A DNA stretch of 61,018 nt, filler included. It is 5 parts of 5 records of this genome, joined end to end, with 100 filler letters (N's around TTAATTAATTAA, not from the genome) between each part and the next. Parts side by side here need not be neighbours in the genome. Positions count along the whole stretch, not along the records: positions 49,303 to 54,912 come from SRR20825010_6418; 4 more parts are not named here. One strand, written 5' to 3'. Positions 1,319 through 54,911 of the stretch are shown in pieces. The notes below the pieces were generated by a model. It saw nothing but the letters and a program-made list of their open reading frames with translations, made no database searches and was not told where the DNA came from. The position numbers were made by a program, and so were the translations under genes. How positions within the stretch are numbered: position 1 is the first letter of the stretch; every line of letters begins with the position of its first letter.

Positions 1319-1320
1319 CA

Positions 1321-33831: not shown

Positions 33832-33843
33832 GTGCTGTCAGTT

Positions 33844-36560: not shown

Positions 36561-36672
36561 GTTGTAGTTCCGTGTATCAGTATGAAGAAGCACTGGAAAA
36601 TCACTCGTGACGGCTTCGATCAATGAGGTTATGAAAGCGTTTTCAGGAGAGAGCTTACTACGGTAATTGCTG

Positions 36673-37107: not shown

Positions 37108-37262
37108 TTGATGAGCTACGTCCTTTTTGCAACTAGAGGTATGCCATTGAAGTACCTCGCCCCGGGGTAATCGGCTCTGTTTTAATTCACGGGGCGAGGG
37201 CAATAGGAGATGGTTCTGTATGTATCATCCATCTCATGTTTAAATGAGAGTTTAAGAGTGAC

Positions 37263-40555: not shown

Positions 40556-40606
40556 CAGTAATCGCAGAACAATCATTATCCTGTCTTAGAAAAACGTAAC
40601 AGTCCA

Positions 40607-42019
40607 ATGGATCGTATCTCTATCAACACAATCAGCCAGGTAATTCAGAGGGGGGCAACCAACCCGCTTCAGGAACTGGCTGAAGTTGCGGGGATTTCGA
40701 TTGATTCGCGCACCGCCAAAGAGAACGATCTATTCTTTGCCATTCGGGGGAAGCGATTCGATGGACATCAGTTTGTCAGCCAGGCGTTGGCGCGAGGGGC
40801 AGTCGCCTGTGTTGTGAAACGGGGAGAAGTTACCGATCCTGGTTCTCAAGTTCTGCTTGAAGTCGATGATGTCAATCTCGCGCTGTTGCAGTTTGCCCGC
40901 TGGTACCGCGAGCAGCAATCGGCACGAATCATCGGAGTCACAGGCAGTGTAGGAAAAACGACCACGCGGTCGATGATTTATACTGCATTGTCGTCCTGTC
41001 TGACCGGGATTCAAAGCCCTGCGAATTTCAATAATGAATTCGGCGTGCCCTTAAGCATCGCCGGAATCGAATCGTCTCAACAGTTTGCGGTGCTGGAACT
41101 GGCCGCGTCGCATGTGGGAGAAATTCGAGAGCTGGCTGAGATTGCACTGCCTCAGATTGGGGTGATTACCGCCATCGGTCACTCGCATCTGGAGCATTTT
41201 GGAACATTACAACAGATCGCAGAGACAAAAGGCGAATTATTCGAACAGTTGCCGGCCTCAGGTCTGGCGATCGTCTGTGGCGATGACCCGTTTGCCGACG
41301 ATCTGGCGTCCCGAACCACTGCCAGGACAGTGCGGGTTGGTCTGGGTGAAAACAATGACCTGCAGGCTGTCTCAATTGAGCAGGACCCGCAGGGAATCTC
41401 TTTTCGGGTGAACGGTCAGCAGTATCTGTTACCAGTTGTGGGGCGTCATTTTGTCAATGCTGCGTTGGCTGCGATCGCTGTGGCTCGGGAACTGGGGATT
41501 TCTGAACACGATGTCTCAGAGAGTCTGCGGAACTATTCAACTGTGCCGGGACGCTGTCATCGAATGCAGATTGGCGACTGGACTGTGATTGATGATACGT
41601 ATAACGCCAGTCCCGACTCGATGCAGGCGGCGTGCCAGGTGTTACACGACTATGTCGGAACAGGTAAACGGATCATTGTGATGGGAGACATGCTGGAACT
41701 GGGGCCGGAAACCGAACGCTATCATCGGGAGCTGGGAACCCTGGTTTCCGCAGCAGGCGTTGATCTGTTGTTTGCTTGTGGAAAGCAGGCAGAGTCGGTG
41801 TCGCAGGGCGCCCGATCTGCGGGGATGTCTCATACTAAAATAATAACTGCTGCTGATGTGGAACTGCTGGCTGAGGATGTAACGGAGCATCTTGAGCCGG
41901 GAGACGTTGTGTTAGTGAAAGGATCTCGGGGGATGCGGATGGAGCGTTTATTGCAGCATCTTCAGCAGATTGTTTCAGACAGGGAAACAGCAGGAGCAAC
42001 GAAAATATCATGTGTCTAA
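40607..42019 (+). CDS. murF: UDP-MurNAc-pentapeptide synthetase MurF
   Basis: TGSVGKTTT, NFNNEFGVP, DTYNASP, GDMLELG and VKGSRGM motifs. Confidence 0.95.
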   Translation: MDRISINTISQVIQRGATNPLQELAEVAGISIDSRTAKENDLFFAIRGKRFDGHQFVSQALARGAVACVVKRGEVTDPGSQVLLEVDDVNLALLQFARWYREQQSARIIGVTGSVGKTTTRSMIYTALSSCLTGIQSPANFNNEFGVPLSIAGIESSQQFAVLELAASHVGEIRELAEIALPQIGVITAIGHSHLEHFGTLQQIAETKGELFEQLPASGLAIVCGDDPFADDLASRTTARTVRVGLGENNDLQAVSIEQDPQGISFRVNGQQYLLPVVGRHFVNAALAAIAVARELGISEHDVSESLRNYSTVPGRCHRMQIGDWTVIDDTYNASPDSMQAACQVLHDYVGTGKRIIVMGDMLELGPETERYHRELGTLVSAAGVDLLFACGKQAESVSQGARSAGMSHTKIITAADVELLAEDVTEHLEPGDVVLVKGSRGMRMERLLQHLQQIVSDRETAGATKISCV

Positions 42020-42228
42020 ACTTGTGATTTCACCATATGCTTCGGGTTTGCGGGAATCCAGAGCGCGTCCGCTTCGGCGGACAAATCAGCGTCGGAAATT
42101 GTGATTACTTGGGTCGATCACTCCTCAGCTGTATTATGGTGAAATCATTTCCGGACGTCGGGATTGGGGTCTCGGCGTCCGGTACCTTCATTTTGTAGTG
42201 TTAGACTGTGTCCAGTTTTACTGTAGCG

Positions 42229-42328
42229 NNNNNNNNNNNNNNNNNNNNNNNNNNNNNNNNNNNNNNNNNNNNTTAATTAATTAANNNNNNNNNNNNNNNN
42301 NNNNNNNNNNNNNNNNNNNNNNNNNNNN
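42229..42328. other. Artificial contig spacer
   Basis: 44 N + TTAATTAATTAA + 44 N. Confidence 0.99.
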
Positions 42329-42382
42329 TGTGTTTTCGACCAGCCAGACGGCGGTCGCTTTGGGCATGAGGGGCTGAATCAT
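42329..42382 (-). CDS. DUF1013 (TrcR-like) protein, N-terminal fragment
   Basis: MIQPLMPKATAVWLVENT; not in the ORF track; cut by the contig edge. Confidence 0.8.
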
Positions 42383-42534
42383 ATGGGTTCCTCTGATCCA
42401 CCCGGGGCCACCGGATGAACCCTTGTCTCGTCAATGAGATTGGGTATGGCCGTTATATAAGGTGAAAACGGACCATAGGGAAGGAGAATCCCCAATCCGC
42501 TGCCGATCCCGGCTCTGCCAGCGCCTTATGGGGC

Positions 42535-43530
42535 CTAAAGAGTGAGGATGATCTTGCCGATATGGCTACTTTTTTCCATAAGCGTGTGCGCTTTGGCAGC
42601 TTCGTCCAGCGGGAAGGTCGCGTCGATCAGGGGTTTGACGCGGCCGGTTGTGAGCAGGGGCCAGACCTTTTCGAGCAAGGCCGCAGCAATCGCGGCTTTT
42701 TCCTCAACAGAGCGGGGGCGAAGGGTCGAGCCGGTCAGGGTCAGGCGTTTCAGCATGACCGGCATGAAATTCACTTCGGCCTTGAAGCCGTTCAGGAAGG
42801 CGATGGAGACAATGCGTCCGTCGCGGGCAGCGCATTGGATGTTCCGGTCGATATAATCGCCACCCACCATGTCGAGAATGACATCGACGCCCTGCTTGTC
42901 GGTCAGGTCGGCAATACGGGCGACGAAATCTTCTTCACGGTAATTGATGGCGGCATCTGCGCCCAGTTCCAGACAGGCGTCGCATTTTTCTTGGGAGCCT
43001 GCGGTTGCAAAGACGCGGGCGCCGAAAGCCTTGGCAAGCTGGATGGCCGTTGTGCCGATGCCGCTGGAGCCGCCATGCACCAGAAATGTCTCGCCGCTTT
43101 TCAACGCGCCGCGCTCGAACACATTGGTCCAGACGGTGAAAAAGGTTTCCGGCAGGCCTGCCGCCTCGATGGCGTTAAAGCCGTTGGGGATTGGCAGGGC
43201 ATGGCTTTCATGCGCCAGGCAATATTCGGCATAGCCACCGCCGCCGACCAGGGCGCAGACATGATCACCGAGTTTCCATTTGGTCACGTTGCTGCCGATT
43301 GCGGCGACGGTGCCGGCGACTTCCAGTCCGGGTGTGTCGGGAGAACCGGGGGGTGCGGGGTAGAGGCCCATGCGCTGGATCGTGTCGGGCCGGTTGACGC
43401 CTGCGGCTTCGACATGGATCAGGATTTCGCCTGCGGCGGGGTGCGGGGTCGCGATTGTGGTCGGTTGCAAGACGTCCGGACCGCCGGGCTTTGTGATGGC
43501 AATGGCTCTCATTGTGTCGGGCAGGGTCAC
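42535..43530 (-). CDS. NAD(P)H-quinone oxidoreductase, PIG3 family
   Basis: AAGVNRPD, PGLE, HGGSSGIG, GSTLR and HIGKI motifs. Confidence 0.93.
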   Translation of the reverse strand: MTLPDTMRAIAITKPGGPDVLQPTTIATPHPAAGEILIHVEAAGVNRPDTIQRMGLYPAPPGSPDTPGLEVAGTVAAIGSNVTKWKLGDHVCALVGGGGYAEYCLAHESHALPIPNGFNAIEAAGLPETFFTVWTNVFERGALKSGETFLVHGGSSGIGTTAIQLAKAFGARVFATAGSQEKCDACLELGADAAINYREEDFVARIADLTDKQGVDVILDMVGGDYIDRNIQCAARDGRIVSIAFLNGFKAEVNFMPVMLKRLTLTGSTLRPRSVEEKAAIAAALLEKVWPLLTTGRVKPLIDATFPLDEAAKAHTLMEKSSHIGKIILTL

Positions 43531-43659
43531 GATGCATCACCTCTTGCTAAAAACTGTTGGGTCAAGGTCTAGCGCCGTGTGGCAAGTCCCGCAACAATGC
43601 GCTCAAGGCACCCAGCCTTGGGGGTGGTTCGTGCGAATGCCTGTCGGGAGGATATGTGG

Positions 43660-43860
43660 ATGGCAAGTGATGATCTGGAGCCGCGCAAAAGGCGCGGAGA
43701 GGCGCTGGCAGCGCTGGCGCGCGAGGATCTGGATTTATTGGGTGTGGAGGAGCTGAACGACCGAATCACAGCCCTCGAAGCGGAAATAATGCGCATTCAG
43801 GCCCAGATTGAAAAAAAACAAGGGACGAGATCGGCGGCTGAAGCACTTTTCAAAAAATAG
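43660..43860 (+). CDS. DUF1192 protein
   Basis: EDLDLLGVEELNDRITALEAEI...RSAAEALFK. Confidence 0.85.
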   Translation: MASDDLEPRKRRGEALAALAREDLDLLGVEELNDRITALEAEIMRIQAQIEKKQGTRSAAEALFKK

Positions 43861-43963
43861 GGTGCGAATCGCTAAGTTGCTCAATTCATGTCATTTTTAC
43901 GTTCATATTTGTGAAATTTAGGGTGCGGTCCCTAATCTGAGAAGATGTCAGTTTGTACGCGGA

Positions 43964-43978
43964 TTAATCGTTTGGTAA
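43964..43978 (+). promoter_or_regulatory. CtrA-box-like site
   Basis: TTAA-N7-GTAA (one mismatch to TTAA-N7-TTAA), upstream of the sRNA and rcdA. Confidence 0.4.
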
Positions 43979-44004
43979 TTATGTAACCGCTAGGGTGACC
44001 TTGC

Positions 44005-44101
44005 GTAATCCAGTGTTCCTGGATTTGAGTGGTTCCTATCCACTCTGTTTGACGCCTCCCTGTTAGAACTGAGCCGCGAGCATTCTCGCGGCTCTTTTTT
44101 T
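44005..44101 (+). ncRNA. Alphaproteobacterial trans-acting sRNA candidate (possibly BjrC1505 family)
   Basis: Hairpins AATCCAG/CTGGATT and GAGTGG/CCACTC, single-stranded GCCTCCC, terminator GAGCCGCGAG-catt-CTCGCGGCTC-T7. Confidence 0.7.
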
Positions 44102-44199
44102 ATGTCTCGTGCTATCAAGGGTGGCACTTGGCACGATAGTTGATCCTTTCAGGGCATGGTGTGCCGCCGTGGCACGAAAGTGTTCAAGGGGTTGAGTTC

Positions 44200-44748
44200 A
44201 TGAGCAGCGATAATTTTGACGGCGATGATGTGGTCTTTGCGGATGATGACGAAAATGTCTCGTTGGCTGAATTCATGTCGTCGGGTGTGTTTCAGCGCAC
44301 CTATCGCGAAGGCATGCAACTGGTTGAGGAAACATCAGCTTATCTGGATGGGCCGGGCCGTGAAGCCTCGCGCAATCTTTCACGGGATGCCTCGCTGGCC
44401 TATGCGGGCGAAAGCATGCGCCTGACAACGCGTTTGATGCAGGTGGCAGCTTGGCTTTTGGTGCGCAAGGCCGTGCATGAAGGCGAGATTACACCTGAAG
44501 AAGCACGCTCGGAGAAATACCGGCTTTCTGCCAAGGATATTGCGCGTTCGGCCCGCATGACCGGTGCTTCGGCATTGCCTGAGCGCCTTCTGGATCTGAT
44601 CGGTAAATCGGAGCGTCTTTATGCGCGTGTCGAACGTCTGGACAGCGAGCTGCGCCAGCAGCCTGAGGGTATGCCCGGTGGTCATCCGCTGGCTGACCAG
44701 ATGAGCCGCGTCGAAGCCTTTTTCCGTGAAAGTGCGACACGCTTTTAA
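44200..44748 (+). CDS. rcdA: DUF1465 / regulator of CtrA degradation RcdA
   Basis: EGMQLVEETSAYLDGPGR...ESMRLTTRLMQVAAWLL. Confidence 0.9.
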   Translation: MSSDNFDGDDVVFADDDENVSLAEFMSSGVFQRTYREGMQLVEETSAYLDGPGREASRNLSRDASLAYAGESMRLTTRLMQVAAWLLVRKAVHEGEITPEEARSEKYRLSAKDIARSARMTGASALPERLLDLIGKSERLYARVERLDSELRQQPEGMPGGHPLADQMSRVEAFFRESATRF

Positions 44749-44791
44749 GGGACACAGTGTTTCTTTATGAAACACGTGTCTGAGACTGCCC

Positions 44792-45442
44792 TTATGCCTC
44801 GCTGCGCCGGTTCAGGTTTGTGTTCCGTGCCAGCAGGGCAAAGAGCAGGGCGGCGAGTGCTGCGAGCCAGAGGGCGTTGAGGCCCATTAGCGGATAGACG
44901 GCAGCGCCCATGACGGCACCCGAAGCTAGCCCCAGCCAAAGCGCCAGATAGGGCCACCATGCGAATTTGGCGCGGCCCAGCATGGCACCGGCAAGGCGCT
45001 GGCCCATTTTCACCAATGTTCCCGTCATATAGGTGAGACCGATATGGACATCGTCATTATCGGCGAAAATGGCGTTTTCCGTGCCCATGGCGAGGGCCAC
45101 TGCAATGGCGGCAAGGTTCATATGCCCTGCCAGGCCCAAGGCCGCGGCAATGGCCAGCAATGTGGCAACGCAGATCAGAATGGCGCTGGCCCGGCGTTTT
45201 CCTGCGAAATGGCCCAATAGAGTGCCTGCCATGACGCCGAGGACGAAAACGGCGATTATTCCGCCTGCGGTGAGGGCCGAGCGCGCGCCACCTGCCAGTC
45301 CGACAGCAAACAGGGTGGTATTGCCGCTCATGAAGGAGACGAAATAGCCGCCCAGATTGAGATAGCCCACGGCATCGACAAAGCCCGCAAGGGCTGCGAG
45401 CCCTGCGGCCAGATAGGTGATGCGGCTTTCATATCGGATCAT
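44792..45442 (-). CDS. YoaK/DUF1275 membrane protein
   Basis: AGFVDA, FVSFMSGNTT and TYMTGTL motifs. Confidence 0.9.
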   Translation of the reverse strand: MIRYESRITYLAAGLAALAGFVDAVGYLNLGGYFVSFMSGNTTLFAVGLAGGARSALTAGGIIAVFVLGVMAGTLLGHFAGKRRASAILICVATLLAIAAALGLAGHMNLAAIAVALAMGTENAIFADNDDVHIGLTYMTGTLVKMGQRLAGAMLGRAKFAWWPYLALWLGLASGAVMGAAVYPLMGLNALWLAALAALLFALLARNTNLNRRSEA

Positions 45443-45527
45443 GATCTCAACCCGGCGGAGACTTATCTGAGGAAATGGCGGGACTTATAGTGTCATAGCG
45501 CGCCGTGCGGCGCAGCTTGCGGGAAAC

Positions 45528-45558
45528 AAAAAAAGCCCCGGATGGAACCGGGGCTTTT
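45528..45558 (-). terminator. Intrinsic terminator of rpmE
   Basis: AAAAAAGCCCCGG-atggaa-CCGGGGCTTTT. Confidence 0.8.
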
Positions 45559-45587
45559 GTATTTTTGGGCTGATCTGACAGCAGAAC

Positions 45588-45815
45588 TTAGTTCTGGCCA
45601 CCGAGATTGCCAAATTTCTGTTTGAAGCGGCTGACGCGGCCACCGCGGTCGAGGAGCTGTGTGCCGCCACCGGTCCATGCCGGATGGGTGGTGGGATCAA
45701 TGTCCAGGACCAGCGTGTCGCCTTCGGCGCCGTAGGTCGAGCGGGTCTGGAACGTGGTCCCGTTGGTCATGGTCACTGTGATCATGTGGTAGTCGGGATG
45801 CGTGTCTTTCTTCAT
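45588..45815 (-). CDS. rpmE: 50S ribosomal protein L31
   Basis: [10 protein letters not shown]...HPAWTGG...GGRVSRF. Confidence 0.96.
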
Positions 45816-46080
45816 GGCTCTAACTTCTCAGATACGGGCGAAAGATGGCTCGATGCGCGCGAAAAAACGGAGCGCTGCCTCTGAGGCGCGCCACCAGAAG
45901 GTGGGCTTATAGCCAACCCCTGAAGCTTTTGCAAGGGAGAGAGCGGAGAGAATTATCCCCTTTGCGCGGCCATGCCGCAGGGCTGGCAGGGGAGGCGGAT
46001 TGGCACTTTTGGTCCCTCGTTGCTATATGACAGGGCGTGCCGCCAATTCCCTTGTCCCTCCAAAACGAGCTGGTTCCCTT

Positions 46081-47931
46081 ATGAGCGAAGCGTCCAACCC
46101 GATTGTTGATGGCATCGACGAAGAAGCCCAGCGGCGCAAACCGGCCAAGGCTGTCGGCCCCATCGTCAAGCTGGCGCCGTTTGTGGGTCGCTATAAGGCC
46201 ATGATTGCGGCGGCTCTGGTGTCGCTGGTTCTGGCGACGCTTTCCACTCTGGCCTTTCCCATGGCAGGCGGGCGGCTGGTCGATCTGCTGCGTCGAGGCG
46301 ATGCGCTGGCGACGGGCCGGATGGTCGACCAGTATTTTCTGGTGCTGATTGCCGTGGCGCTGATGCTGGGTGTGGCGTCGGCCACGCGGTTCTATTTTGT
46401 GAGCTGGATCGGCGAGCGTGTGGTGGCGGACCTGCGCGCTGCGGTCTATGCCCATGTGCTGAAGCTCTCGCCCGCATTTTTCGAGGTGACGCGCACAGGC
46501 GAAGTGTTGTCGCGCCTGACCGCCGACACGACACTGATCAAGACGGTTGTCGGCTCGTCGGCCTCCATCGCGCTGCGCAATGTTTTTCTGTTTTTCGGTG
46601 CGGCGGCGATGATGGTCTATACGAGCCCGCATCTGTCGGGGCTTGTGCTGTTGGCTATTCCGATGATTGTGCTGCCGCTTGTGATTTTCGGGCGCTGGGT
46701 GCGTCGTCTGTCACGCGCCAGCCAGGACAGGCTCGCTGATACATCGGCTTTTGGCAGCGAGAGCCTGAATGCCATTCAGACTGTGCAGGCCTTCACGCAT
46801 GAGGATCTGGATCGCGAACATTTTTTCCAGACAGTTGAACGCAGCTTCGAGACAGCGCGTGACCGCATTACCGCGCGTGCGATCCTGACGGCGCTTGTGT
46901 TCTTTCTCGGCATGTCGAGCGTGGTCTGCGTTCTGTGGTTCGGCACCAAGGATGTGATTGCAGGCGACATGACGGGCGGGGCGCTGGCGCAGTTCATTCT
47001 TTATGCGCTTTTCGCAGCCGGTTCGCTGGCGGCTTTGTCTGAAGTCTGGGGCGATGTGCAGATGGCGGCAGGCGCGACGGAGCGTTTGATTGAGCTGATC
47101 ACGACAGAGCCTGATATTGCTGCGCCCACACATCCTGTGGCGCTGCCGCTGCCCGCGCGCGGTGCGATCACTTTCGACAAGGTGACATTTTCTTATCCCA
47201 CACGCCCGCATGTCTCGGCGCTCAACCAGTTCTCGCTGAATGTGGCGCCCGGCGAGACGGTGGCGATTGTCGGCCCGTCGGGCGCTGGCAAAAGTACGGT
47301 CTTCCAGCTTCTGATGCGCTTCTATGATCCACAGACGGGCGGCGTGAGCCTGGACGGTGTGAATGTTGCGGCGGCTGATCCAGTTGATGTGCGTCGTCGC
47401 CTTGCGCTGGTGCCGCAGGAAACGGTGGTATTCGGCATGACGATTGCCGAGAATATTCGCTATGGACGACCAGAAGCCAGCGACGAGGACGTGCGCGCGG
47501 CGGCAACGGCGGCACGTATCGACGATTTCATCACTTCGCTGCCCAAGGCCTATGACACGCAGGTGGGCGAGCGCGGTGTGACCCTGTCGGGCGGTCAGCG
47601 CCAGCGCATTGCCATTGCGCGTGCGATCCTGCGCGATGCGCCTGTGCTGCTGCTCGATGAGGCGACAAGCGCGCTTGATGCGGAGAGCGAGAAGCTTGTG
47701 CAGGCTGCTCTCGAAGGCCTTATGGAAGGCCGCACGACACTTGTCATTGCCCATCGTCTTGCCACCGTGCTGAAGGCCGACCGCATCATCGTGATGGAAG
47801 AAGGCCGGATCATCGCGCAGGGCACACATGATGAATTGATGCGGCAGGGCGGGCTTTATTCGCGTCTGGCGCGTCTCCAGTTCACCGGCGACATTCTTGG
47901 CAACGAACCAGCCAGCGTCGCGCTTCACTGA
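46081..47931 (+). CDS. ABC transporter, fused permease/ATPase (MsbA-related)
   Basis: TM domain plus [17 protein letters not shown] and LLDEAT motifs. Confidence 0.93.
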
Positions 47932-47964
47932 TTTCGGGCTATCGGCCTTAGGGGAAACTTGTCC

Positions 47965-49092
47965 ATGTCCAATCCGGAAACTTCATCGCGACCCATGTCC
48001 GCTCTCAAAGCATGGTCCTTTGTCGCCCTCGCCGTTGTGCTGGCGCTTATGTCGATCACCATGTGGCGGTTTCTCGCCGCTGCGGGTTATTTCACGGCGA
48101 TCAAAAAAGAAGTCACAGCCCAGTGCAGCGCCATTCCGTCGCCGCCCGGTCCGGAGGATATCGAGATTGACCGCTCGCGCGGGCTTGCTTTTGTCTCGGC
48201 CTCCGATCGTCGTCTGCTCAATAGCGGTGCGACGGCAGCGCGGGGCGGTATCTATGTGATTGACCTTACAGCACCTGTTGAACATTGGCAGTTGCGCCCT
48301 GTCACGGCGATGGAGCCTGTTGCGTTCAACCCGCATGGCATCAGCCTTTATCGCGGTTCCGATGGCATGGAGCGTCTCTTTGTCGTCAACCATCCTGCCA
48401 AGGGTCAGCACAGTGTCGATATTTTCGATGTCGCGGCTGATGGCACGCTGACGCTGGTCCGCAGTGTCACTGATCCGCTGCTTGTCTCGCCCAATGATGT
48501 TGTCGCTGTCGGACCGGAGAGCTTCTACGCCACGAATGATCACGGCACGTCCAACAGCACGAAGGCGATGATCGACGACATACTTTTGTCGCGTAATGCC
48601 AATGTTGTCTATTATGACGGTTCCAAAATGAGCCAGGCTGCCGGATTGTTGAGCTTTGCCAATGGCATCAACAAGAGTGCCGATGGCAAGACGATCTATG
48701 TGGCGGAGTCACTTGGTCTGTCGTTGCATATTTATGCGCGCGACGAGGAAACCGGGAAGCTCACACCTAAAGACTTCACGCAATTGGGCACGGGGCTCGA
48801 CAATATCGACGTGCTTGAAGATGGCGCATTGCTGATTGCGGCCCATCCCAAGATCACTTCGTTTATTTCACATGCGGGCGATGCGGCAGAGCTTTCGCCG
48901 AGCCAGGTGCTGCGCGTCGAGCTTGCGGGTGAAGGCGGTGGCGGCAAGGCGGGTACGATCTATCTCAATCTGGGGCAGGAAATTTCCGGTTCGACGGTTG
49001 CCGCCGGTTGGCGCGATCTGATGCTGATCGGCAATGCGTTTGATCCCAAGATCCTTGTCTGCGAGCAGTCGAAAGAGATCAGGGCGTATTAA
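47965..49092 (+). CDS. Paraoxonase/arylesterase-like beta-propeller lactonase
   Basis: GPEDI, FNPHGIS, VVNH, NDVVAVGP..FYATNDH, ANGI and DNI motifs; N-terminal anchor. Confidence 0.8.
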   Translation: MSNPETSSRPMSALKAWSFVALAVVLALMSITMWRFLAAAGYFTAIKKEVTAQCSAIPSPPGPEDIEIDRSRGLAFVSASDRRLLNSGATAARGGIYVIDLTAPVEHWQLRPVTAMEPVAFNPHGISLYRGSDGMERLFVVNHPAKGQHSVDIFDVAADGTLTLVRSVTDPLLVSPNDVVAVGPESFYATNDHGTSNSTKAMIDDILLSRNANVVYYDGSKMSQAAGLLSFANGINKSADGKTIYVAESLGLSLHIYARDEETGKLTPKDFTQLGTGLDNIDVLEDGALLIAAHPKITSFISHAGDAAELSPSQVLRVELAGEGGGGKAGTIYLNLGQEISGSTVAAGWRDLMLIGNAFDPKILVCEQSKEIRAY

Positions 49093-49105
49093 AGGGGGAG
49101 GAAGA

Positions 49106-49202
49106 CCCTCACCCTCAGCTCGCTCCTCCCTCTCCCAGAGGGAGAGGGGAAGAGGCGGGAAGATCATTTAGCGAAGACGTGGATACGCGGGTCAAGCCTG
49201 CG
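49106..49202. repeat. Alphaproteobacterial palindromic intergenic repeats (REP/RPE-like)
   Basis: CCCTCACCC...CCCTCTCCC-aga-GGGAGAGGG, then CGCGGGTCAAGCCTGCG at the contig end. Confidence 0.6.
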
Positions 49203-49302
49203 NNNNNNNNNNNNNNNNNNNNNNNNNNNNNNNNNNNNNNNNNNNNTTAATTAATTAANNNNNNNNNNNNNNNNNNNNNNNNNNNNNNNNNNNNNNNNNN
49301 NN
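49203..49302. other. Artificial contig spacer
   Basis: 44 N + TTAATTAATTAA + 44 N. Confidence 0.99.
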
Positions 49303-49347
49303 GGTAGGAGAACTCTGAAATGATCAAGGCAGTGGGGAGATAGCGGC

Positions 49348-50637
49348 GTGGAAGCATTACTCATTCTGGGAATCATGCTGGTACTGTTGATGCTGGGCTT
49401 TCCGATGAAGGTGCCCCTCATCACCGCAGCATTGGCGGTCCTGCTGATATTTCACCCTGATGTGACTCCTGCTGTGTTGATCCAGCAGATGATTGGCGGG
49501 ATCAAGCCTGCAGCGTTGATCGCGGTTCCCATGTTTATTTTTGCCGCGGATATCATGACGCGCGGGAACTCGGCGAATCGTCTGCTCGACCTGGTGACAG
49601 CCTTTGTCGGTCATCTGCGCGGCGGATTACCCATCGCCAGTGCCATCAGTTGTACCCTGTTTGGCGCCATGTCGGGTTCAACGCAGGCGACTGTTGTTGC
49701 GATCGGCGGACCGCTGCGTCCGCAGTTACTCAAAGCCGGTTATTCCGACTCTTTCACCACTGCTCTGATTATCAATGCCAGTGACATCGCCCTGTTGATT
49801 CCTCCCAGTATCGGCATGATTGTGTATGGCGTTGTTTCGGGAACTTCGATCGGCGAGATGTTCATTGCCGGGATCGGTCCCGGTCTGCTGGTACTGTTGA
49901 TGTTCTGCATCTACTGCTGGATTGCTTCCATTCGAATGCAAATTCCCCTGCAACCCAAAGCGGATCACGCAACACGTCGGACGGCCATCCAACGGGCATT
50001 GCTCCCTTTGGGTTTTCCACTGATCATCATTGGAGGCATTTATTCCGGTATCTTCAGCCCCACTGAAGCGGCAGCCGTTTCGGTACTTTATGCCGGCATT
50101 TTAGAAATCGTCTGTTTTCGAGATCTCTCGCTGAAAGACATTCCCGATATTGCGCTTTCGACCGGCCTGGTTACTGCCGTCGTTTTCATCCTGGTCGGCG
50201 CCGGTGCAGGATTCAGCTGGGTCATTTCGTTTGCCCAACTGCCCGATGCTCTCATTAATAACTGGCTGGGGCTGACTCCCGATTCCGGTTACTGGACGAT
50301 TATGCTGACGATTGCCATCGCCTATTTCATTGGCTGCATGTTCGTCGACCCGATTGTGGTGATCCTGATCCTGACACCCATATTCCATCCTGTGGCAGCG
50401 GCTGCCGGTATTGATCCGGTGCTGGTTGGCATTGTCGTAACGCTGCAGGTCGCGATCGGCTCGGCCACCCCGCCGTTCGGCTGCGATATTTTCACGGCGA
50501 TTGCCGTCTTTCGCCGCCCTTACCTGGAAGTCATTCGCGGCACGCCCCCCTTCATTGCTATTCTTCTGCTGGCGGGTGTCTTACTGATCGCCTTTCCCAG
50601 TATTTCTCTTTTCTTACGCGATCTGGCTTTCAACTGA
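49348..50637 (+). CDS. TRAP transporter large permease DctM (TeaC-like)
   Basis: LIAVPMF, FGAMSGS, LIPPSI, FSPTEAA and TPPFG motifs. Confidence 0.93.
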   Translation: MEALLILGIMLVLLMLGFPMKVPLITAALAVLLIFHPDVTPAVLIQQMIGGIKPAALIAVPMFIFAADIMTRGNSANRLLDLVTAFVGHLRGGLPIASAISCTLFGAMSGSTQATVVAIGGPLRPQLLKAGYSDSFTTALIINASDIALLIPPSIGMIVYGVVSGTSIGEMFIAGIGPGLLVLLMFCIYCWIASIRMQIPLQPKADHATRRTAIQRALLPLGFPLIIIGGIYSGIFSPTEAAAVSVLYAGILEIVCFRDLSLKDIPDIALSTGLVTAVVFILVGAGAGFSWVISFAQLPDALINNWLGLTPDSGYWTIMLTIAIAYFIGCMFVDPIVVILILTPIFHPVAAAAGIDPVLVGIVVTLQVAIGSATPPFGCDIFTAIAVFRRPYLEVIRGTPPFIAILLLAGVLLIAFPSISLFLRDLAFN

Positions 50638-50654
50638 TCAGACAGGTATCGAAG

Positions 50655-51725
50655 ATGAACAGCACAATCTATCTCAAACTGATTCAGTTATGCGGGCTGC
50701 TGATCTGCCTTATTCTCCCCTCTGCCTGTGAGTCACAAGGGACCGCTTCGACAGAAGAGCCGGTTGTGCAGTGGCGATTTGCGATTGAAGAAACGATCGG
50801 CAGCGTGCAGCATCAATACGCGATCAAGTTCAAAGAACTGATTGAAACGCGGTCTGAAGGCAAAATCGAAGTGACGATTTATCCCTACGGCACCCTGGGG
50901 ACTTCCGACCAGATCACCGAACTCGTCGATATGGAAGTCATCCAGTTTGCGATGGCTTCGCCGGGACACCTGGGGAAACTGATACCGGAGGTCCAGGTCT
51001 TTCTGCTTCACTTTCTGTTTTCCGATGACGACGAAATCAATAACAAGGTCCTCAACGAAGACCCTAAACTTCAGGAAACGTTCGATCAGCTTTACGCCCG
51101 CAAAGATCTGAAACTGCTTTCGATTTTCTCCGAAGGCTGGCAGGTCTGGACCACAAAGAAAGATATACAGACACCCGATGATTTCCAGGGAGTTAAAATG
51201 CGAGTCATGACAACACCTCTGTTACTGGCCGCGTATGAAGCCTATGGTGCGAGTCCGACTCCCCTGCCTTACTCCGAAGTTTACTCGGCGCTGCAGCTGA
51301 ATATGATCGACGGCCAGGAGAACCCGGTCTTCGCGATTCAGGAAATGAACTTTTATGAAGTCACCGACTGGATGATCTTTGCGCGACATGCTCCTTTCAT
51401 CACAACCGCAGTCACCAACCGTGAGTTTTTCAACTCCCTCTCTCCAGAAAGACAGAAACTGGTGCTGGGCGTTGTCTCAGATCTGAACGGCTACATTCTG
51501 GACGTACAGAAGCAGTTCAACCGGGAGCGACTGAATCTGATTCGTAAAAACAGACCCAAACTGAATATCGTCAACGAGCTCACGCCGGAAGCCCGCGCTG
51601 CGTTTCGTGAAGCGAGTCAACCTGTTCGCGAACAGTTCATCGAGATGACAGGCGAAGATGGTCGCAAACTGCTGGAAGAAATCAAAGCGACCATCAAAGA
51701 GTATGAACGACAACAGACTCCCTGA
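50655..51725 (+). CDS. TRAP transporter substrate-binding protein DctP (TeaA/ectoine-like)
   Basis: WRFAIEE, KMRVM and PYSEVYSALQL..IDGQENP motifs. Confidence 0.9.
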   Translation: MNSTIYLKLIQLCGLLICLILPSACESQGTASTEEPVVQWRFAIEETIGSVQHQYAIKFKELIETRSEGKIEVTIYPYGTLGTSDQITELVDMEVIQFAMASPGHLGKLIPEVQVFLLHFLFSDDDEINNKVLNEDPKLQETFDQLYARKDLKLLSIFSEGWQVWTTKKDIQTPDDFQGVKMRVMTTPLLLAAYEAYGASPTPLPYSEVYSALQLNMIDGQENPVFAIQEMNFYEVTDWMIFARHAPFITTAVTNREFFNSLSPERQKLVLGVVSDLNGYILDVQKQFNRERLNLIRKNRPKLNIVNELTPEARAAFREASQPVREQFIEMTGEDGRKLLEEIKATIKEYERQQTP

Positions 51726-51787
51726 TCGTCAACTGCTCTACAGTGAATCTTCTTTCTGCCATCCTGCGTTTTCCCTGCGAGATTGCT

Positions 51788-51814
51788 GAACCTTCCCGTT
51801 CACACCGCTGTCTA
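51788..51814 (+). promoter_or_regulatory. ECF-sigma-like promoter upstream of the structured RNA
   Basis: GAACC-N17-GTCTA. Confidence 0.4.
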
Positions 51815-51819
51815 TGCAG

Positions 51820-52445
51820 GAACGATTGTTCGTCGTTCGTCCAGCGGCGTGCAGATCACCGTGTCCGGTTTGATGCTGTACGTGCCGTGTCGGGGTTCTA
51901 ACCGGATGATGACAATTCCAGGATAGCTCAACTGGTAGAGCACCAGACTGATAATCTGGCTGTTACAGGTTCGATTCCTGTTCCAAGGAAGAGTTGGCCG
52001 GAGATCGGCTCTCTCTTGAACGCTGCAAGCGTTAACCCTAAGAAACCGGACGAAGACAGATGTCCGTTGGATCGGCCTGAAGTGATGGACTCCGCGTGGA
52101 TTGCCTGCAATCTGCATGGAGAAAGTGATTTCAGGCAGCACAAAACACCGCCTTGCAGTACGTGGATACCGCTGGCGTCCTTTCAACGTGGAAACATTGT
52201 GAAGCCATGTCCGATTCAGCTGGGATGCCTCCAGGTCCCCAGTCTGAGTCGAGCTAAGTGAAACAATGTGGATGCGCTGGAAGAAGCCTGCTGAAGCGTA
52301 CTCCGCGAAGTGCCTGTGTGATCGGCGAACACTCTGTCTTCGAAAGGTGTCTCTTCGAAACAGTTCGCGATATTGACGTCGCGTTTTATTTTTTGTCTCT
52401 GTTCAATTGTCAAAGCAGAGTTATCAGTCCAGGGACGTTCCCTGA
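51820..52445 (+). ncRNA. Large structured non-coding RNA/leader embedding a tRNA-like domain, upstream of slipin
   Basis: At least ten self-complementary segments, plus a long-range helix (51838-51847 with 52169-52177) enclosing the cloverleaf. Confidence 0.6.
51917..51990 (+). tRNA. tRNA-Ile(GAU)-like element with defective acceptor stem and no encoded CCA
   Basis: TCCAGGA-TA-GCTC AACTGGTA GAGC-A-CCAGA CT GAT AA TCTGG-CTGTT-ACAGG TTCGATT CCTGT-TCCAAGGA-A. D-, anticodon- and T-arms are canonical; the acceptor has a 1x2 A/AA internal loop. Confidence 0.8.
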
Positions 52446-52455
52446 GGAGGTCGTT

Positions 52456-53562
52456 ATGTTCGGTATCAAACGCTATGAAATTCACAGTTACGAAATGGGA
52501 CTGTTCTTCAAGAATGGTGAATTTCAGGGACTCCTCAAAACAGGTACGCACTGGTTTTTCAACCCTTTCGATGAGATTCAGGTCGACATCGTTTCGCTGC
52601 GTGCTCCGTTGCTGATTCACGAAAAGCTGGACCTGATTTTCAAATCGAAGTCACTGCAGGAACATGCGCTGGTGCTGGACCTGCAGGACCACGAACGGGG
52701 ACTGGTCTGGATCGACAATCGGTTCCAGCATATTCTGCCACCCGGTCAGTACGTGTTCTGGACAGAACTGAAAGACGTGCGCGTGGAGATTGTCGATGCG
52801 CGAAAAGTTCGCTTTGAGCACATCGATCTGAAAGTCATCGCGCGCTCTGTCGCAGCACAGCGTCTGCTGGATGTGTGCACGGTAGAACGTGACCATGTCG
52901 GCGTACTGTTTATCGACGGTCGTTTTGTGGACACGCTGGAACCAGGTCTATATGCTTTCTGGCTGGGTCAGTCCCAGGCTCTGATCGCGGAATACGACCT
53001 GCGGGAAACCATGGTCGACATCAGCGGTCAGGACATCATGACTGCGGATAAAGTGACGCTGCGGATTAACGCCGTGGTGACTTACAAAGTTGTTGATGCC
53101 CGGAAAGCAGCTTCACAGACAGACGATGTGCGGCAGGCACTGTACCGCGAAACGCAGCTGGTTCTGCGTGCCGTGTTGGGTGCCCGGGAACTGGATGTCT
53201 TCCTGACAGAAAAGGATGTGCTGGCACAGGACATCGAAGAAAATATTCGACGTCGTGCCGGTGAACTGGGTCTGGAAATCGCATCGGTGGGTATTCGTGA
53301 TGTCATCCTGCCGGGCGAGATGAAAGATCTGATGAACAAGGTCACCGAAGCGAAAAAAGCAGCGGAGGCCAACCTGATTGCCCGTCGCGAAGAAACAGCG
53401 GCGATCCGCAGTCAGGTGAATACCGCCAAGCTGCTGCAGGACAACCCGGTTCTGATGCGTCTGCGTGAGCTGGAAGTCCTGGAAAAAGTCGCTACGGAAA
53501 ACAAACTCAACATCATCCTGGGTGAGAAGGGTTTGACTGACCGCGTGGTAAACCTGCTTTAA
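52456..53562 (+). CDS. Slipin family (SPFH/band-7) protein
   Basis: ATG follows GAGGAGG. Has repeated N-terminal ERGL/PG-x-Y beta modules, SGQDIMTADKVTLRIN, RDVILPGEMK, RREETAA.RS..NTAK and NPVLMRLRELE. Confidence 0.9.
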   Translation: MFGIKRYEIHSYEMGLFFKNGEFQGLLKTGTHWFFNPFDEIQVDIVSLRAPLLIHEKLDLIFKSKSLQEHALVLDLQDHERGLVWIDNRFQHILPPGQYVFWTELKDVRVEIVDARKVRFEHIDLKVIARSVAAQRLLDVCTVERDHVGVLFIDGRFVDTLEPGLYAFWLGQSQALIAEYDLRETMVDISGQDIMTADKVTLRINAVVTYKVVDARKAASQTDDVRQALYRETQLVLRAVLGARELDVFLTEKDVLAQDIEENIRRRAGELGLEIASVGIRDVILPGEMKDLMNKVTEAKKAAEANLIARREETAAIRSQVNTAKLLQDNPVLMRLRELEVLEKVATENKLNIILGEKGLTDRVVNLL

Positions 53563-53586
53563 ACCAGGTTTGCACAATAAAAGAAA

Positions 53587-53621
53587 CCCCGGATCTGAGA
53601 AATCGGATCCGGGGCTTTTTT
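53587..53621 (+). terminator. Intrinsic terminator closing the ncRNA-slipin unit
   Basis: CCCCGGATCTGA-gaaa-TCGGATCCGGGG-cTTTTTT. Confidence 0.85.
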
Positions 53622-53721
53622 CATAATATACTGGAAAGTACTGAACCATTCCTGTAAAAAGGTCCTCACATCAGTATATGAAAAGCGGCTCGCTCTCCAT
53701 CACGTTCTTGAGGTTGATTTG

Positions 53722-54159
53722 ATGTCCATTGCGGTCCAGTGTGAGGAATGTTTTCAAAACTATAAAGTCAAAGAGGAACGGGCAGGCCAGACCCTGAAAT
53801 GCAAATCGTGTGGCAGTAAAATGCGAGTGCCTGCTGTGGAAGAGGAATTCGAAGATCTTTCCGCCGATTATGGCGAGCCGATCACTCCCCCGCGGAAGAA
53901 GAAGCCGACCGCGGCACCAGCCAAAAAAAAGAAAAAGAAGAAGTCGTCCGCTCAGTCTTTGAACATTTCTGCTGGCAAGCTCATTAAAAAAGCGTTCGGT
54001 GCATTTTCGATGGTCATTGGTGTCCTGATCCTGGTGTTAGGCATCTACAGTATTTTTGCAGGTCCAGGCCCTAACGGGGAAAAAGCCCGGCCCGTGTATG
54101 CGGCGCTTGTTGCATCCGGCTTCATCGGCGTCGGTAAAAAATGGATGTTTGATGATTAA
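53722..54159 (+). CDS. Zinc-ribbon membrane protein (planctomycete-type)
   Basis: CEEC...CKSC, Lys-rich linker, two TM segments. Confidence 0.75.
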   Translation: MSIAVQCEECFQNYKVKEERAGQTLKCKSCGSKMRVPAVEEEFEDLSADYGEPITPPRKKKPTAAPAKKKKKKKSSAQSLNISAGKLIKKAFGAFSMVIGVLILVLGIYSIFAGPGPNGEKARPVYAALVASGFIGVGKKWMFDD

Positions 54160-54168
54160 GCCAACTGG

Positions 54169-54657
54169 TCAATGATCCTCAGTATTCATTCCAAATTCTT
54201 CGACGCGACTGTTCACGAAGGCGGCCAGGTTCTCGGCATCATCGGTGCCGACTCTTAAGGTGCCGCGTTTCATCTGAATGGCCACGCAATCGCGGCCCCA
54301 GAGATTCCAGACCCAGCCGCCGCGCGGGCTCAGATGAATTCCCCAGCCTTCCATTAATGTAGTCCGGTCGACATCGGCGCGAAGAACCTCTTCATACAAG
54401 ACACTGCGTTGAAACAGAGGGAGGGGACCAAAAGATATCCGCAGGCGATCGATTTCATCAGCCACCGTCAGATGATGAAAGCCCGCTGCCAGAATCAACA
54501 TCACCAGACCTGTCAGAACGAAGATCAGACTCAGAGTTGACTGGGGTGGTATCGTCCGCACAAACCAGGCAATCACAAAAAACGCAACCGCCAGTCCGTA
54601 CAGAACCAGACAGAGCGGTCCCCGCTGCCGGTGATAATACAGAGAAAGGCTGGTCAT
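54169..54657 (-). CDS. Hypothetical membrane protein (bacterial PH-like C-terminal domain)
   Basis: Two TM segments; GWGIH...WVWNLWG...RVGTDD. Confidence 0.7.
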   Translation of the reverse strand: MTSLSLYYHRQRGPLCLVLYGLAVAFFVIAWFVRTIPPQSTLSLIFVLTGLVMLILAAGFHHLTVADEIDRLRISFGPLPLFQRSVLYEEVLRADVDRTTLMEGWGIHLSPRGGWVWNLWGRDCVAIQMKRGTLRVGTDDAENLAAFVNSRVEEFGMNTEDH

Positions 54658-54911
54658 GTCGGGTTCTCAATCTCGTGAAATAACTGAACGACCTCATTAT
54701 ATTCATTTCCACTGAATTTCGATATCCCCCACAACATGATCGGAATCACCAGCGTCAGTAAGGGAATCGCCCAATGCCCGCGGACCGTGCCTCCCGCAGC
54801 CTCGGCTGTGGAGATGGACCAGAGATAAATGGCGATACCAATCGGGATTCCTGCCAGAGTGGCTATCCAGGAAAACCAGACCGCACGCTTTTCACTCTGC
54901 CGGATTTTCTC
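54654..54911 (-). CDS. Hypothetical membrane protein, C-terminal fragment
   Basis: Open frame EKIRQSEKRAVWFSW...HEIENPT*; its stop overlaps the next ATG (ATGA). Confidence 0.55.
   Translation of the reverse strand, partial: EKIRQSEKRAVWFSWIATLAGIPIGIAIYLWSISTAEAAGGTVRGHWAIPLLTLVIPIMLWGISKFSGNEYNEVVQLFHEIENPT

Follow-up and report, generated by a model that had tools for sequence, protein, structure and literature searches.

A conserved, structured RNA of about 575 nt with a tRNA-like domain upstream of a slipin gene in a Gimesia-type bacterium

What occupies the 730 nt between the end of dctP (position 51725; Pfam DctP, 1e-67) and the start codon of a Band-7 reading frame (ATG at 52456), and what might it do next to a slipin gene that has no RNA ligase beside it? 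We addressed this question in a 61,018-nt stretch of DNA, hereafter the window, in which all positions are counted. An initial annotation had proposed that the gap is non-coding and packed with helices, that it encloses a tRNA mimic, and that RNA and slipin form a unit with its own promoter and terminator. It also mentioned a link between slipins, RtcB and tRNA-like RNAs, and this link is indeed in print (Burroughs and Aravind 2016, as reported in bioRxiv 10.1101/312249): the accessible part of the latter text describes a Band-7, b7a-tRNA and RtcB RNA-repair system as an in silico prediction of 2016, unvalidated as of 2018. Here we find that the unit is a structured RNA of about 575 nt followed by a partner slipin gene, in a Gimesia-type bacterium (Table 1).

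Table 1. Features of the RNA–slipin unit (positions in the window)
Feature	Positions	Strand	Details or basis
ECF-sigma-type promoter motif (putative)	51788–51812	+	−35 GAACC 51788–51792, 17-nt spacer, −10 GTC 51810–51812
Whole predicted non-coding RNA, about 575 nt	51818–52394	+	nhmmer homology, covariation
5′ domain	51841–51894	+	helices 51841–51843/51892–51894 and 51845–51854/51876–51887, then a T-loop-like GGGTTCT segment
tRNA-like domain (b7a-tRNA type mimic)	51916–51990	+	ARAGORN, Rfam, comparative alignment
3′ domain, about 300 nt, closed by long-range helices	52045–52348	+	covariation
Hairpin and U run, terminator- or attenuator-like, between RNA and slipin	52366–52394	+	terminator search
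Hairpin CAGGGA/TCCCTG abutting the Shine–Dalgarno sequence GAGGAGG (52444–52450)	52430–52450	+	six-member clade
Slipin gene, 368 aa	52456–53562	+	Pfam Band_7 7e-31
Closing intrinsic terminator	53587–53623	+	12-pair stem, 8 G-C pairs, then CTTTTTTCAT

A covarying RNA with an embedded tRNA-like domain

The five closest relatives do not preserve the reading frames of this gap: the frame at 52016–52261 carries stops or frameshifts in four of them, and an in-frame extension of the slipin over 52258–52455 is broken in all five, bearing out the view that the gap holds no credible ORF. The RNA itself is genuine: it is conserved and structured, occurs as a single copy and is linked to the slipin. Of 80 related planctomycete loci, 75 gave an nhmmer match over its whole length upstream of the slipin (in three of the other five, less than 200 nt of upstream sequence is available), across families that share just 62–77% slipin identity. 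Each of five genomes holds a single full-length copy, always directly upstream of the slipin gene. The slipin was carried by 25 of 151 sampled Planctomycetota genomes and is thus accessory; the genome behind window positions 1–20000 has no match to the unit, and a search for the slipin among relatives of that genome returned just distant SPFH paralogues.

The plus strand of 51826–52400 folds with −218 kcal/mol (z = −4.0; 0 of 100 shuffles as good), and the minus strand of the same region gives z = −3.3. Compensatory changes occur in 51 of 71 consensus pairs, in 14 helices; 92.9% of cells are paired, whereas shuffles give 81.5% (none of 500 as high as observed) and slid partners 36–47%, and double-change cells number 596 against 165 ± 12 in shuffles. 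The covariation check proposed for the region beyond the cloverleaf thus came out in favour of a larger RNA, with conserved, covarying helices in both flanking domains. The helices of the 5′ domain comprise 13 pairs, 8 of them changed on both sides, with 91–98% of cells paired. In the 3′ domain, helices 8–14 comprise 41 pairs, of which 32 are changed on both sides; long-range helices (52045–52047/52346–52348, 52052–52063/52329–52341 and 52070–52074/52319–52323) enclose inner ones (52075–52079/52132–52136, 52149–52163/52296–52307 and 52171–52176/52286–52291), and the pair 52058/52335 is GC in 39 sequences, AU in 23, GU in 5 and unpaired in none.

All 12 helices that the initial annotation had listed outside the cloverleaf are present where it placed them, but comparative support for them is uneven. 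Support is strong for GCCTGAA/TTCAGGC, which over 67 sequences has 393 of 449 cells paired and 169 double changes. GGATTGC/GCAATCT, ACATTGT/ACAATGT, CGATTCAG/CTGAGTCG and CAGGGA/TCCCTG are supported inside the six-member Gimesia clade, the last with 36 of 36 cells paired and one compensatory change. CGGAC/GTCCG and GCGAAC/GTTCGC, with 52–53% of cells paired in 67 sequences, clash with the covarying helix 52052–52063/52329–52341, which supersedes them, and the other five are unsupported across the 67 sequences (37–59% of cells paired).

The tRNA-like domain is called by ARAGORN as ‘tRNA-Ile GAT’, the sole tRNA in the window, and scores 60.5 bits with the Rfam tRNA model RF00005 (gathering threshold, 29). 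Its D, anticodon and T arms are intact and its ‘anticodon’ reads GAT, but the acceptor stem is paired at 5 of 7 positions, with two adjacent mismatches and U as first base, and CCA is absent; the stem is fully paired (7 of 7) in just 2 of 67 sequences. Orthologous elements read GTT (locus L021) and CTT (L025) in RNAs about 91% identical to that of the window. Among 59 seven-nucleotide loops there are 28 different triplets, with A34 in 19, on a frame that is kept (U33 in 43, R37 in 54 and A38 in 51 of the 59), and the 67 loci include triplets and loop lengths used by no bacterial tRNA. The cloverleaf is therefore a mimic and not a tRNA, as proposed: its acceptor stem is imperfect, its anticodon varies freely among orthologues, and it is embedded in a larger structured RNA. 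Positions 34 and 35 differ in 27% of 15 close pairs, at the 90th percentile of columns, whereas position 36 does not differ in close pairs and the anticodons of near-identical pairs are identical; hypermutation of the anticodon was looked for in the close pairs and not seen. Judged from these alignments, the variation looks like relaxed constraint, not an arms race.

No Rfam family other than tRNA matched the RNA, including the YrlA, GOLLD and ROOL families that had been named for such a search. With permissive filters and E up to 10, cmscan of 51000–54500 listed only tRNA within 51726–52455; models of GOLLD, ROOL, OLE, HEARO, tmRNA, RNase P and group I introns had no match in that interval, and ARAGORN found no tmRNA. 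The extra covarying domains, absent from Rfam, set this RNA apart. No description of the extended RNA turned up in the openly readable main texts searched; Burroughs and Aravind 2016 may already cover part of the RNA–slipin features. Outside the unit, an sroE-like match at 53654–53708 scored 26.5 bits against a threshold of 51.

Promoter, transcript ends and an unlinked rtcB

The GAACC–17-nt spacer–GTC motif is invariant in all six Gimesia-clade loci, in a region that is otherwise 55% identical. Promoters of ECF sigma factors have a GAAC-type −35 element, a spacer of 16–17 nt and a (C/T)GTC-type −10 element; the motif matches this consensus in all three parts and is, by that sequence match, a putative promoter. 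It recurs in 28 of 66 loci (spacer N16 in 13, N17 in 15), always at a fixed distance of 45–69 nt ahead of the CCAGCGGC anchor, against a background of 0.034 per 160 nt. In 32 of the other loci a canonical tRNA ends at most 120 nt away; no locus has both, and 6 have neither. The RNA thus appears to start in one of two ways, from an ECF-type promoter (GAACC-N16/17-GTC) or immediately behind tRNA genes of housekeeping appearance, never both, an alternation between its own stress promoter and attachment to a tRNA operon that suggests a link of tRNA supply to the RNA–slipin module. A sigma-54-like site (TGGCAC-N5-TTGC, up to two mismatches) was not found in 50505–53800.

In the window, the transcript is predicted to start near 51818–51821, and both ends given here for the RNA are those expected from the promoter motif and the U run. 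At the end of the unit stands the strong terminator claimed for it (stem 53587–53614, 12 pairs, then a T run); a conserved RNA–slipin pair with an ECF-type promoter and terminator of its own is thus supported. The interval between RNA and slipin is more variable. In the Gimesia clade and a few other loci, 12 of 67 in all, a hairpin and T run directly follow the RNA core; any terminator-like site is found there in 16, and 51 have none, with a median gap of 101 nt, a pattern that a leader role would explain equally well. The RNA is nevertheless full-length in 11 of 67 loci in which 290–1886 nt separate its core from the slipin ATG, and in one more locus outside that set (L031) an ADP-ribosylglycohydrolase gene lies between the two; such retention despite separation from the slipin is easier to reconcile with an RNA that acts in trans than with one that is just a leader.

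Three RNA libraries, drawn from three studies, yielded contigs that cover 51851–52328 and span both ends of the cloverleaf, a hint that the RNA is expressed, from contigs in which strand, ends and level are not readable and DNA is a possible source. Cover is absent over 51726–51850 and 52376–52440, which is not usable to place transcript ends, and in one run word depth is higher over the RNA than over the gene, which is not usable to rank abundance. One run (X1) contained just a 223-nt piece of the slipin gene, and one (X2) contained two ‘joints’ with sides shorter than 30 nt, from relatives with shorter variable hairpins.

The unit was described as lacking an adjacent RtcB, and tblastn with Gimesia RtcB found none in the window or in 80 related loci with 3-kb flanks. 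Each Gimesia-clade relative searched has one rtcB at another locus, monocistronic and with the same promoter motif upstream, which fits the suggestion that the ligase is encoded elsewhere. The 8-base motif lies upstream of rtcB in three of three Gimesia-clade genomes. Of 12 further rtcB genes, 8 have it within roughly 520 nt on their upstream side, where about 0.11 occurrences per gene would be expected; two of the rtcB matches have odd spacing or position, the motif is short, and the genomes are related and so are not independent trials. A stricter 11-base pattern occurs just 21–22 times per 8-Mb genome. The promoter motif is conserved and common to the RNA–slipin unit and the unlinked rtcB, which argues for a functional link without adjacency, and control of the unit by an ECF sigma factor would follow from the motif. 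No member of the RtcR family was found in five Gimesia-clade genomes. TROVE had no full-length match in five related genomes, with partial matches of about 70 positions at 30–36 bits in three of the five and none at the slipin locus, and no conserved nuclease or toxin gene lies near the unit.

The slipin and its relatives

The slipin (368 aa) is a soluble member of the SPFH/Band-7 proteins, in which three beta modules at the N terminus precede an SPFH core and long helices form the C-terminal part. It had been called a membrane scaffold, which its sequence and model speak against: no membrane segment was found (highest 19-residue Kyte–Doolittle mean, 1.01), and the model resembles the soluble major vault protein (MVP) as well as stomatin. 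Foldseek matched the AlphaFold model (mean pLDDT 83.3) to stomatin and to MVP, the latter with E values of 3e-10 to 2e-9; residues 7–341 align with MVP 324–699 (9z4w_1) with Z 12.2 and an rmsd of 7.3 over 233 residues, at a sequence identity between the two proteins of 12–14%, and among the matches listed the N-terminal modules are covered by MVP chains alone. The model thus has the vault-type order of beta repeats, SPFH-like shoulder and long cap helix, a likeness of fold, not of function. The protein is acidic (pI 5.5) and 63–96% identical in 36 relatives; Pfam and NCBIfam show no recognizable RNA-binding domain in it, and NCBIfam gives just sub-threshold HflK matches. That it oligomerizes, and that the RNA binds it, we infer.

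Over 89–98% of its length the slipin is 33–38% identical to slipins in nine proteobacterial records, which places it, by sequence, in the same family as the slipins of rtc loci. In the two records inspected, from Citrobacter and Burkholderia, the slipin adjoins RtcR, and the Burkholderia slipin has a tRNA-like ‘Phe AAA’ upstream, an element that the body of the window's tRNA-like RNA matches (nhmmer E 7e-8). Two ORFs downstream of the Burkholderia slipin had no Pfam match in the frames chosen. PaFlo8 of P. aeruginosa (PMC13086221) is a further close comparison.

The unit shares with the Band-7/b7a-tRNA/RtcB system a soluble slipin of the same family, N-terminal modules included, a tRNA-like RNA directly upstream on the same strand, and an RtcB gene in the genome (in the Gimesia-clade relatives). 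It differs in that RtcB is never adjacent (80 loci and the window). Unlike proteobacterial rtc loci, it has neither RtcR (0 of 5 genomes) nor a sigma-54-like site, but an ECF-type promoter or a position after tRNA genes; the 5′ and 3′ RNA domains have no sequence counterpart, by nhmmer, in the Burkholderia and Citrobacter leaders.

Y RNAs are several times shorter than the RNA described here. The Ro60/Y RNA system nonetheless offers a parallel: there, too, a non-coding RNA that contains a tRNA-shaped module is encoded next to a scaffold-type protein and has a tie to RtcB; in the accessible text of bioRxiv 10.1101/312249, the effector domain of YrlA mimics tRNA and its partner is Ro60, a TROVE protein. 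The differences are that no YrlA or Y RNA family matched at E up to 10 in Rfam and that the slipin fold is not that of TROVE. With the eukaryotic vault the slipin shares, in its model, alignment with the MVP beta repeats, shoulder (SPFH-like) domain and cap helix. Vaults are ribonucleoproteins with RNAs of about 100 nt held by a TROVE protein; here TROVE is absent as a full-length match from the five related genomes, and the slipin, known from its gene and model, has 368 aa against roughly 800–900 in MVP. GOLLD, ROOL, OLE and HEARO are large ornate bacterial RNAs, often beside tRNA genes. The slipin-linked RNA resembles them in exceeding 500 nt, in its many covarying helices, in its proximity to tRNA genes and in having no assigned function, but unlike them it keeps a set place in front of a single protein gene and includes a complete tRNA-like cloverleaf.

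Possible roles of the RNA–slipin pair

The pair has been stripped of ligase and regulator yet is under strong selection, which makes a function of its own probable. We lean, by a modest degree, towards an RNA that acts in trans as the partner of a soluble slipin assembly, both being part of a stress regulon linked to RtcB, and within this reading the RNA is most likely the planctomycete version of the Band-7-associated tRNA-like RNA. In the Gimesia-type lineage an ECF-sigma-type promoter would drive the RNA; part of the transcripts would probably stop at the hairpin and U run between RNA and slipin, and the rest would read through into the slipin gene. The RNA would most likely act in trans, displaying on a large scaffold a generic tRNA-shaped module, with elbow and anticodon-loop frame kept and the anticodon free, and would sit in or on a slipin oligomer. 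The module would belong to a stress regulon that also holds the unlinked RNA ligase RtcB, and it may have a role in handling tRNA or RNA damage.

A purely cis-acting leader, in which a tRNA-shaped sensor and a platform of terminator and Shine–Dalgarno hairpin tune slipin synthesis, is a less probable reading that draws on the same geography: RNA and slipin share a strand, the median distance from the end of the RNA to the ATG is 101 nt, and an intervening terminator is lacking in 51 of 67 loci; the hairpin and U run of the Gimesia clade and the hairpin at 52430–52444 that abuts the Shine–Dalgarno sequence resemble an expression platform; and in proteobacteria the tRNA-like element sits between a sigma-54-type promoter and the slipin. 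Such a leader would, however, have 575 nt and 14 covarying helices, far above known riboswitch size, and would have stayed intact in 11 of 67 loci behind 290–1886 nt of foreign DNA; the terminator, confined to 12 of 67 loci, is not part of a conserved core, and no alternative antiterminator pairing was identified. We consider it improbable, too, that the tRNA-like module lures anticodon nucleases as a decoy or reports them as a tripwire, its cleavage protecting real tRNAs or triggering a slipin and RtcB response. The kept anticodon-loop frame around varying positions 34–36, the place of 34 and 35 among the faster columns, and a promoter motif common to RtcB, the ligase that reseals such cuts, would suit this role. 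Known anticodon nucleases need specific anticodons and modifications, a specificity that sits badly with 28 different triplets, many of them A-initial; anticodons are identical in near-identical pairs, with position 36 constant in close pairs, a single-copy RNA would make a poor stoichiometric decoy against the cellular tRNA pool, and no conserved nuclease or toxin gene is near.

The linkage of a free-standing non-coding RNA to the slipin might also be historical, its function being unrelated; insertions are tolerated between the two, and where the RNA follows a tRNA gene it is probably co-transcribed with the tRNA operon. We regard this as quite unlikely for an RNA that is upstream of the slipin in 75 of 80 loci despite the divergence of slipins between families, that is present as the sole full-length copy in five of five genomes, and whose pairing of tRNA-like RNA with slipin recurs in Burkholderia. 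Hardly tenable is the view that a standard tRNA-Ile(GAU) gene precedes a long slipin 5′ UTR with which it has no connection: both ARAGORN and Rfam call the tRNA, and 32 of 66 related loci have genuine tRNA genes immediately upstream, but the acceptor stem begins with U, has two adjacent mismatches and lacks CCA, relatives with nearly the same RNA read GTT and CTT, triplets and loop lengths foreign to bacterial tRNAs occur across the 67 loci, both flanks covary, and RNA-library contigs run across both cloverleaf ends.

Beyond the favoured trans-acting partnership lies a bolder proposal, which we hold to be speculative and on balance unlikely: a bacterial counterpart of the vault, in which an MVP-like SPFH cage would form on or around the 575-nt RNA with its generic tRNA-shaped module. 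This particle would be co-produced either with RtcB, through a single ECF sigma factor, or with the main tRNA operon, and would capture damaged tRNAs or pieces of RNA so that they are repaired or removed. If true, large structured RNAs would gain a new class, and eukaryotic vault ribonucleoproteins a candidate evolutionary relative. Few structured bacterial RNAs exceed 500 nt, and every one of them has started a line of research. The RNA described here covaries clearly, has a constant protein partner and comes from a harmless host genus that can be cultured, all of which make it directly testable, and the promoter motif held in common with rtcB provides a concrete regulon hypothesis, as the vault-protein-like build of the slipin provides a structural one. 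The RNA–slipin pair also bears on the role of the Band-7/b7a-tRNA part in RNA-repair loci.

A conserved three-part RNA 5' of the slipin gene

Positions 49304–54911 of the window share 86–88% identity and gene order with two Gimesia genome bins. Consistent with the initial annotation, the gap between dctP and the slipin gene contains no credible ORF, its ORFs being broken in close relatives, and a strong terminator closes the unit. ARAGORN finds one tRNA-like element in the entire window, inside this gap, with an Rfam tRNA score of 60.5 bits; the Rfam check of the gap returned tRNA only, with no other family matched even at E up to 10.

Features of the slipin unit and its 5' neighbours (window positions)
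Feature	Position	Remark
dctM	49348–50637	
dctP	50655–51725	
Promoter motif	51788–51812	
5' domain of RNA	51841–51894	
tRNA-like element	51916–51990	ARAGORN, called 'Ile GAT'
3' domain of RNA	52045–52348	closed by long-range helices
Long-range helix	52052–52063 with 52329–52341	3' domain
Hairpin and U run	52366–52394	3' of RNA core
Band_7 (slipin) gene	ATG at 52456	368 aa; 730-nt gap to dctP
Terminator	53587–53614	

Scanning for slipin relatives yielded 199 confirmed stretches, of which we used the best 80 loci, nearly all from Planctomycetota. We trained an HMM on the six closest upstream regions and iterated it once; it recovered the whole RNA region (approximately window 51826–52350) in 75 of the 80 and, for close relatives, its match extends to the slipin ATG. 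Of the five loci missed, three have less than 200 nt of upstream sequence. The 67 sequences with full coverage of the region were aligned, and their RNAalifold consensus holds 71 pairs, 51 with compensatory changes. Paired cells make up 92.9% of 4750, compared with 81.5 ± 0.3% in shuffles, none of 500 being as high, and with 36–47% when partners are slid; double-change cells number 596 compared with 165 ± 12 in shuffles, and the covariation score is 0.395 compared with 0.183 for shuffles and at most 0.111 for slid partners. Pair 52058/52335 is GC in 39 sequences, AU in 23, GU in 5 and unpaired in none. The architecture is three-part (5' domain, cloverleaf and 3' domain), and the window sequence by itself folds more stably than its shuffles (z = −4.0). 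Of the twelve helices proposed from the sequence, comparative pairing strongly supports one in every lineage and another four inside the six-member Gimesia clade; two conflict with the covarying long-range helix, and the remaining five are unsupported across the 67 sequences. Variable hairpins are poorly aligned in this set, and further helices probably exist beyond those counted.

The slipin unit lies entirely within the single Gimesia-like piece at 49304–54911. The window as a whole is a patchwork of unrelated DNA, perhaps a chimeric assembly or a composite. Its positions 1–20000 match one contig of genome G001 at 100% identity; 30000–42200 is Gimesia-like (84%) and derives from a genomic place other than the slipin locus; ~42200–49300 and the sequence beyond ~54911, which carries rpsP and trmD at a G+C of 0.64, match neither Gimesia genome, and match G001 only weakly. 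A ~160-nt stretch at ~38128–38290 has 40 or more matches in each of two Gimesia genomes (76–83% identity), resembling a high-copy dispersed repeat, perhaps MITE-like. Located 3' of the unit, within the Gimesia-like segment alignable to related locus L025 up to ~54911, a 146-aa ORF (53719–54159) carries paired CxxC motifs and matches no Pfam or NCBIfam family.

A tRNA mimic in two transcriptional settings

The cloverleaf is a tRNA mimic. Its D, anticodon and T arms are retained across the 67 sequences, and the acceptor stem is fully paired (7/7) in only two; that of the window has 5/7 pairs with its two mismatches side by side, carries a U at its 5' end and lacks CCA. The 59 seven-nucleotide anticodon loops contain 28 different triplets, 19 starting with A, and keep U33 in only 43 cases, while R37 (54/59) and A38 (51/59) persist; eight sequences have loops of 5, 6 or 8 nt. 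Near relatives with ~91% identical RNA carry GAT, GTT and CTT. When 15 close pairs are compared, 27% show a difference at positions 34 and 35, which places these at the 90th percentile of columns, and none shows one at position 36, so the triplet is unconstrained rather than hypermutated. The closest genuine tRNAs in one related genome are Met-CAT and Lys-CTT.

Two mutually exclusive arrangements precede the RNA at 66 loci: 32 are tRNA-linked, 28 have a promoter motif, none has both and six have neither. The tRNA-linked loci lack the motif and have a canonical tRNA gene whose end is no more than 120 nt from the RNA's CCAGCGGC anchor; in 29 of the 32 this tRNA, mostly Cys-GCA, ends 26–68 nt 5' of the anchor, and many are the final members of arrays of up to 20 tRNAs. 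A complete related genome contains just 49 tRNA matches altogether, which leads us to regard the linked tRNAs as housekeeping copies. The 28 motif loci, including the window, have GAACC-N16/17-GTC 45–69 nt 5' of the anchor with no tRNA nearby (background rate, 0.034 per 160 nt). The motif, invariant across the six-member clade closest to the window, fits the ECF-sigma consensus, in keeping with the ECF-like promoter first proposed. Of 67 loci, 12 (the window among them) have a hairpin and U run 3' of the RNA core, and 51 have no terminator-like site between RNA and slipin. Three RNA libraries, each from a different study (runs X2, X3 and X6), yielded contigs that cover 51851–52328 and cross both cloverleaf ends by more than 31 nt; as contigs, they could reflect DNA and are uninformative on strand and ends.

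In the planctomycete tRNA arrays 5' of the RNA, a conserved ORF of ~200–250 aa lies in the 650–990-nt gap that separates tRNA-His from tRNA-Trp (L043:1289-1943, L047, L045, L042, L078:888-1649 and others). Its product contains a domain of the HNH endonuclease type (Pfam HNH, 4e-13). The ORF falls into clusters of 13 and 9 loci, and no other protein neighbour of the unit is conserved.

RtcB and the proteobacterial counterparts

As initially annotated, the unit lacks RtcB: rtcB is absent from the window and from within 3 kb of all 80 slipin genes. In relatives the ligase is indeed encoded elsewhere, with one unlinked, monocistronic rtcB in each of three Gimesia-clade genomes. In these three, GAACC-N16-TGTCCA lies 5' of rtcB. 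A stricter 11-base pattern has only 21–22 sites per 8-Mb genome, among them the rtcB and RNA promoters; the reversed control has 12 and 5. The 8-base motif occurs within ~520 nt 5' of 8 of 12 rtcB genes from ten further genomes (two of the eight with atypical spacing or position), against a chance expectation of ~0.11 per gene. Because the genomes are related, the association is suggestive rather than proof that rtcB and the RNA have a promoter motif in common. Both Gimesia genomes also have the strict pattern 19 nt 5' of a tRNA gene (G042:C77:190427-190452 and G043:C7:250091-250116); the reverse complement of the pattern here resembles a tRNA 5' half, and these sites may be chance matches or tRNA fragments. 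Gimesia RtcB (L102:1177-2577; 467 aa) has ~108 residues before the Pfam RtcB match starts, and related planctomycete rtcB frames span 465–579 aa. RtcR was found in none of five Gimesia-clade genomes, no sigma-54-like site was found 5' of the unit, and TROVE gave only short partial matches in three of five genomes.

The window's slipin is 33–38% identical, over 89–98% of its length, to slipins of nine proteobacterial records, two of which were inspected. Citrobacter has the order rtcR, 448-nt spacer, slipin, nucleotidyltransferase; in Burkholderia, the DNA 5' of slipin carries an RtcR gene together with a sigma-54-like site, an additional T-arm hairpin and a tRNA-like 'Phe AAA', and the planctomycete HMM matches this leader only in the tRNA body. 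In the Burkholderia leader (L107:3483-3738), the sigma-54-like element is TGGCAC, and the separate, perfect T-arm hairpin just 5' of the full cloverleaf makes two tRNA-shaped pieces; a T-loop-like GGGTTCT segment occupies the corresponding place in the planctomycete 5' domain. According to a 2026 paper, the rtc locus of P. aeruginosa includes an SPFH gene (PMC13086221). The Band-7/b7a-tRNA system is a prediction, called unvalidated in the Discussion of a 2018 preprint (bioRxiv 10.1101/312249). Our unit belongs to this predicted kind. Compared with the proteobacterial examples, it lacks RtcB adjacency and RtcR control, and adds large covarying domains, ECF-type or tRNA-operon expression and the promoter motif common with rtcB.

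A soluble slipin and its RNA

The membrane scaffold originally envisaged did not hold up, as the slipin (pI 5.5) has no hydrophobic segment. In its AlphaFold model (pLDDT 83.3), three beta modules come first, followed by an SPFH core and then long helices. Matches to stomatin, HflK/C, prohibitin, erlin and flotillin cover residues 130–358 of the model, whereas chains of major vault protein (MVP) alone also span the N-terminal modules (model residues 7–341 versus MVP 324–699: Z 12.2, rmsd 7.3, 233 residues aligned). Slipin orthologues occur in 25 of 151 sampled Planctomycetota genomes, making the unit accessory, and the RNA is single-copy and directly 5' of slipin in five of five genomes.

An intact RNA lies 290–1886 nt away from slipin in 11 of 67 loci, and this retention despite insertions, together with the RNA's sheer size, makes a mere leader of slipin unlikely. 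With low probability, the RNA may act as the decoy proposed earlier. Outside the 67-locus set, a complete planctomycete chromosome has an ADP-ribosylglycohydrolase gene (L031:593-1657; Pfam 1e-62) between intact RNA and slipin. Our preferred reading, held with somewhat better than even confidence, is an RNA that acts in trans as the partner of a soluble slipin assembly, within a stress response linked to RtcB; RNA–slipin binding, assembly and function are all inferred.
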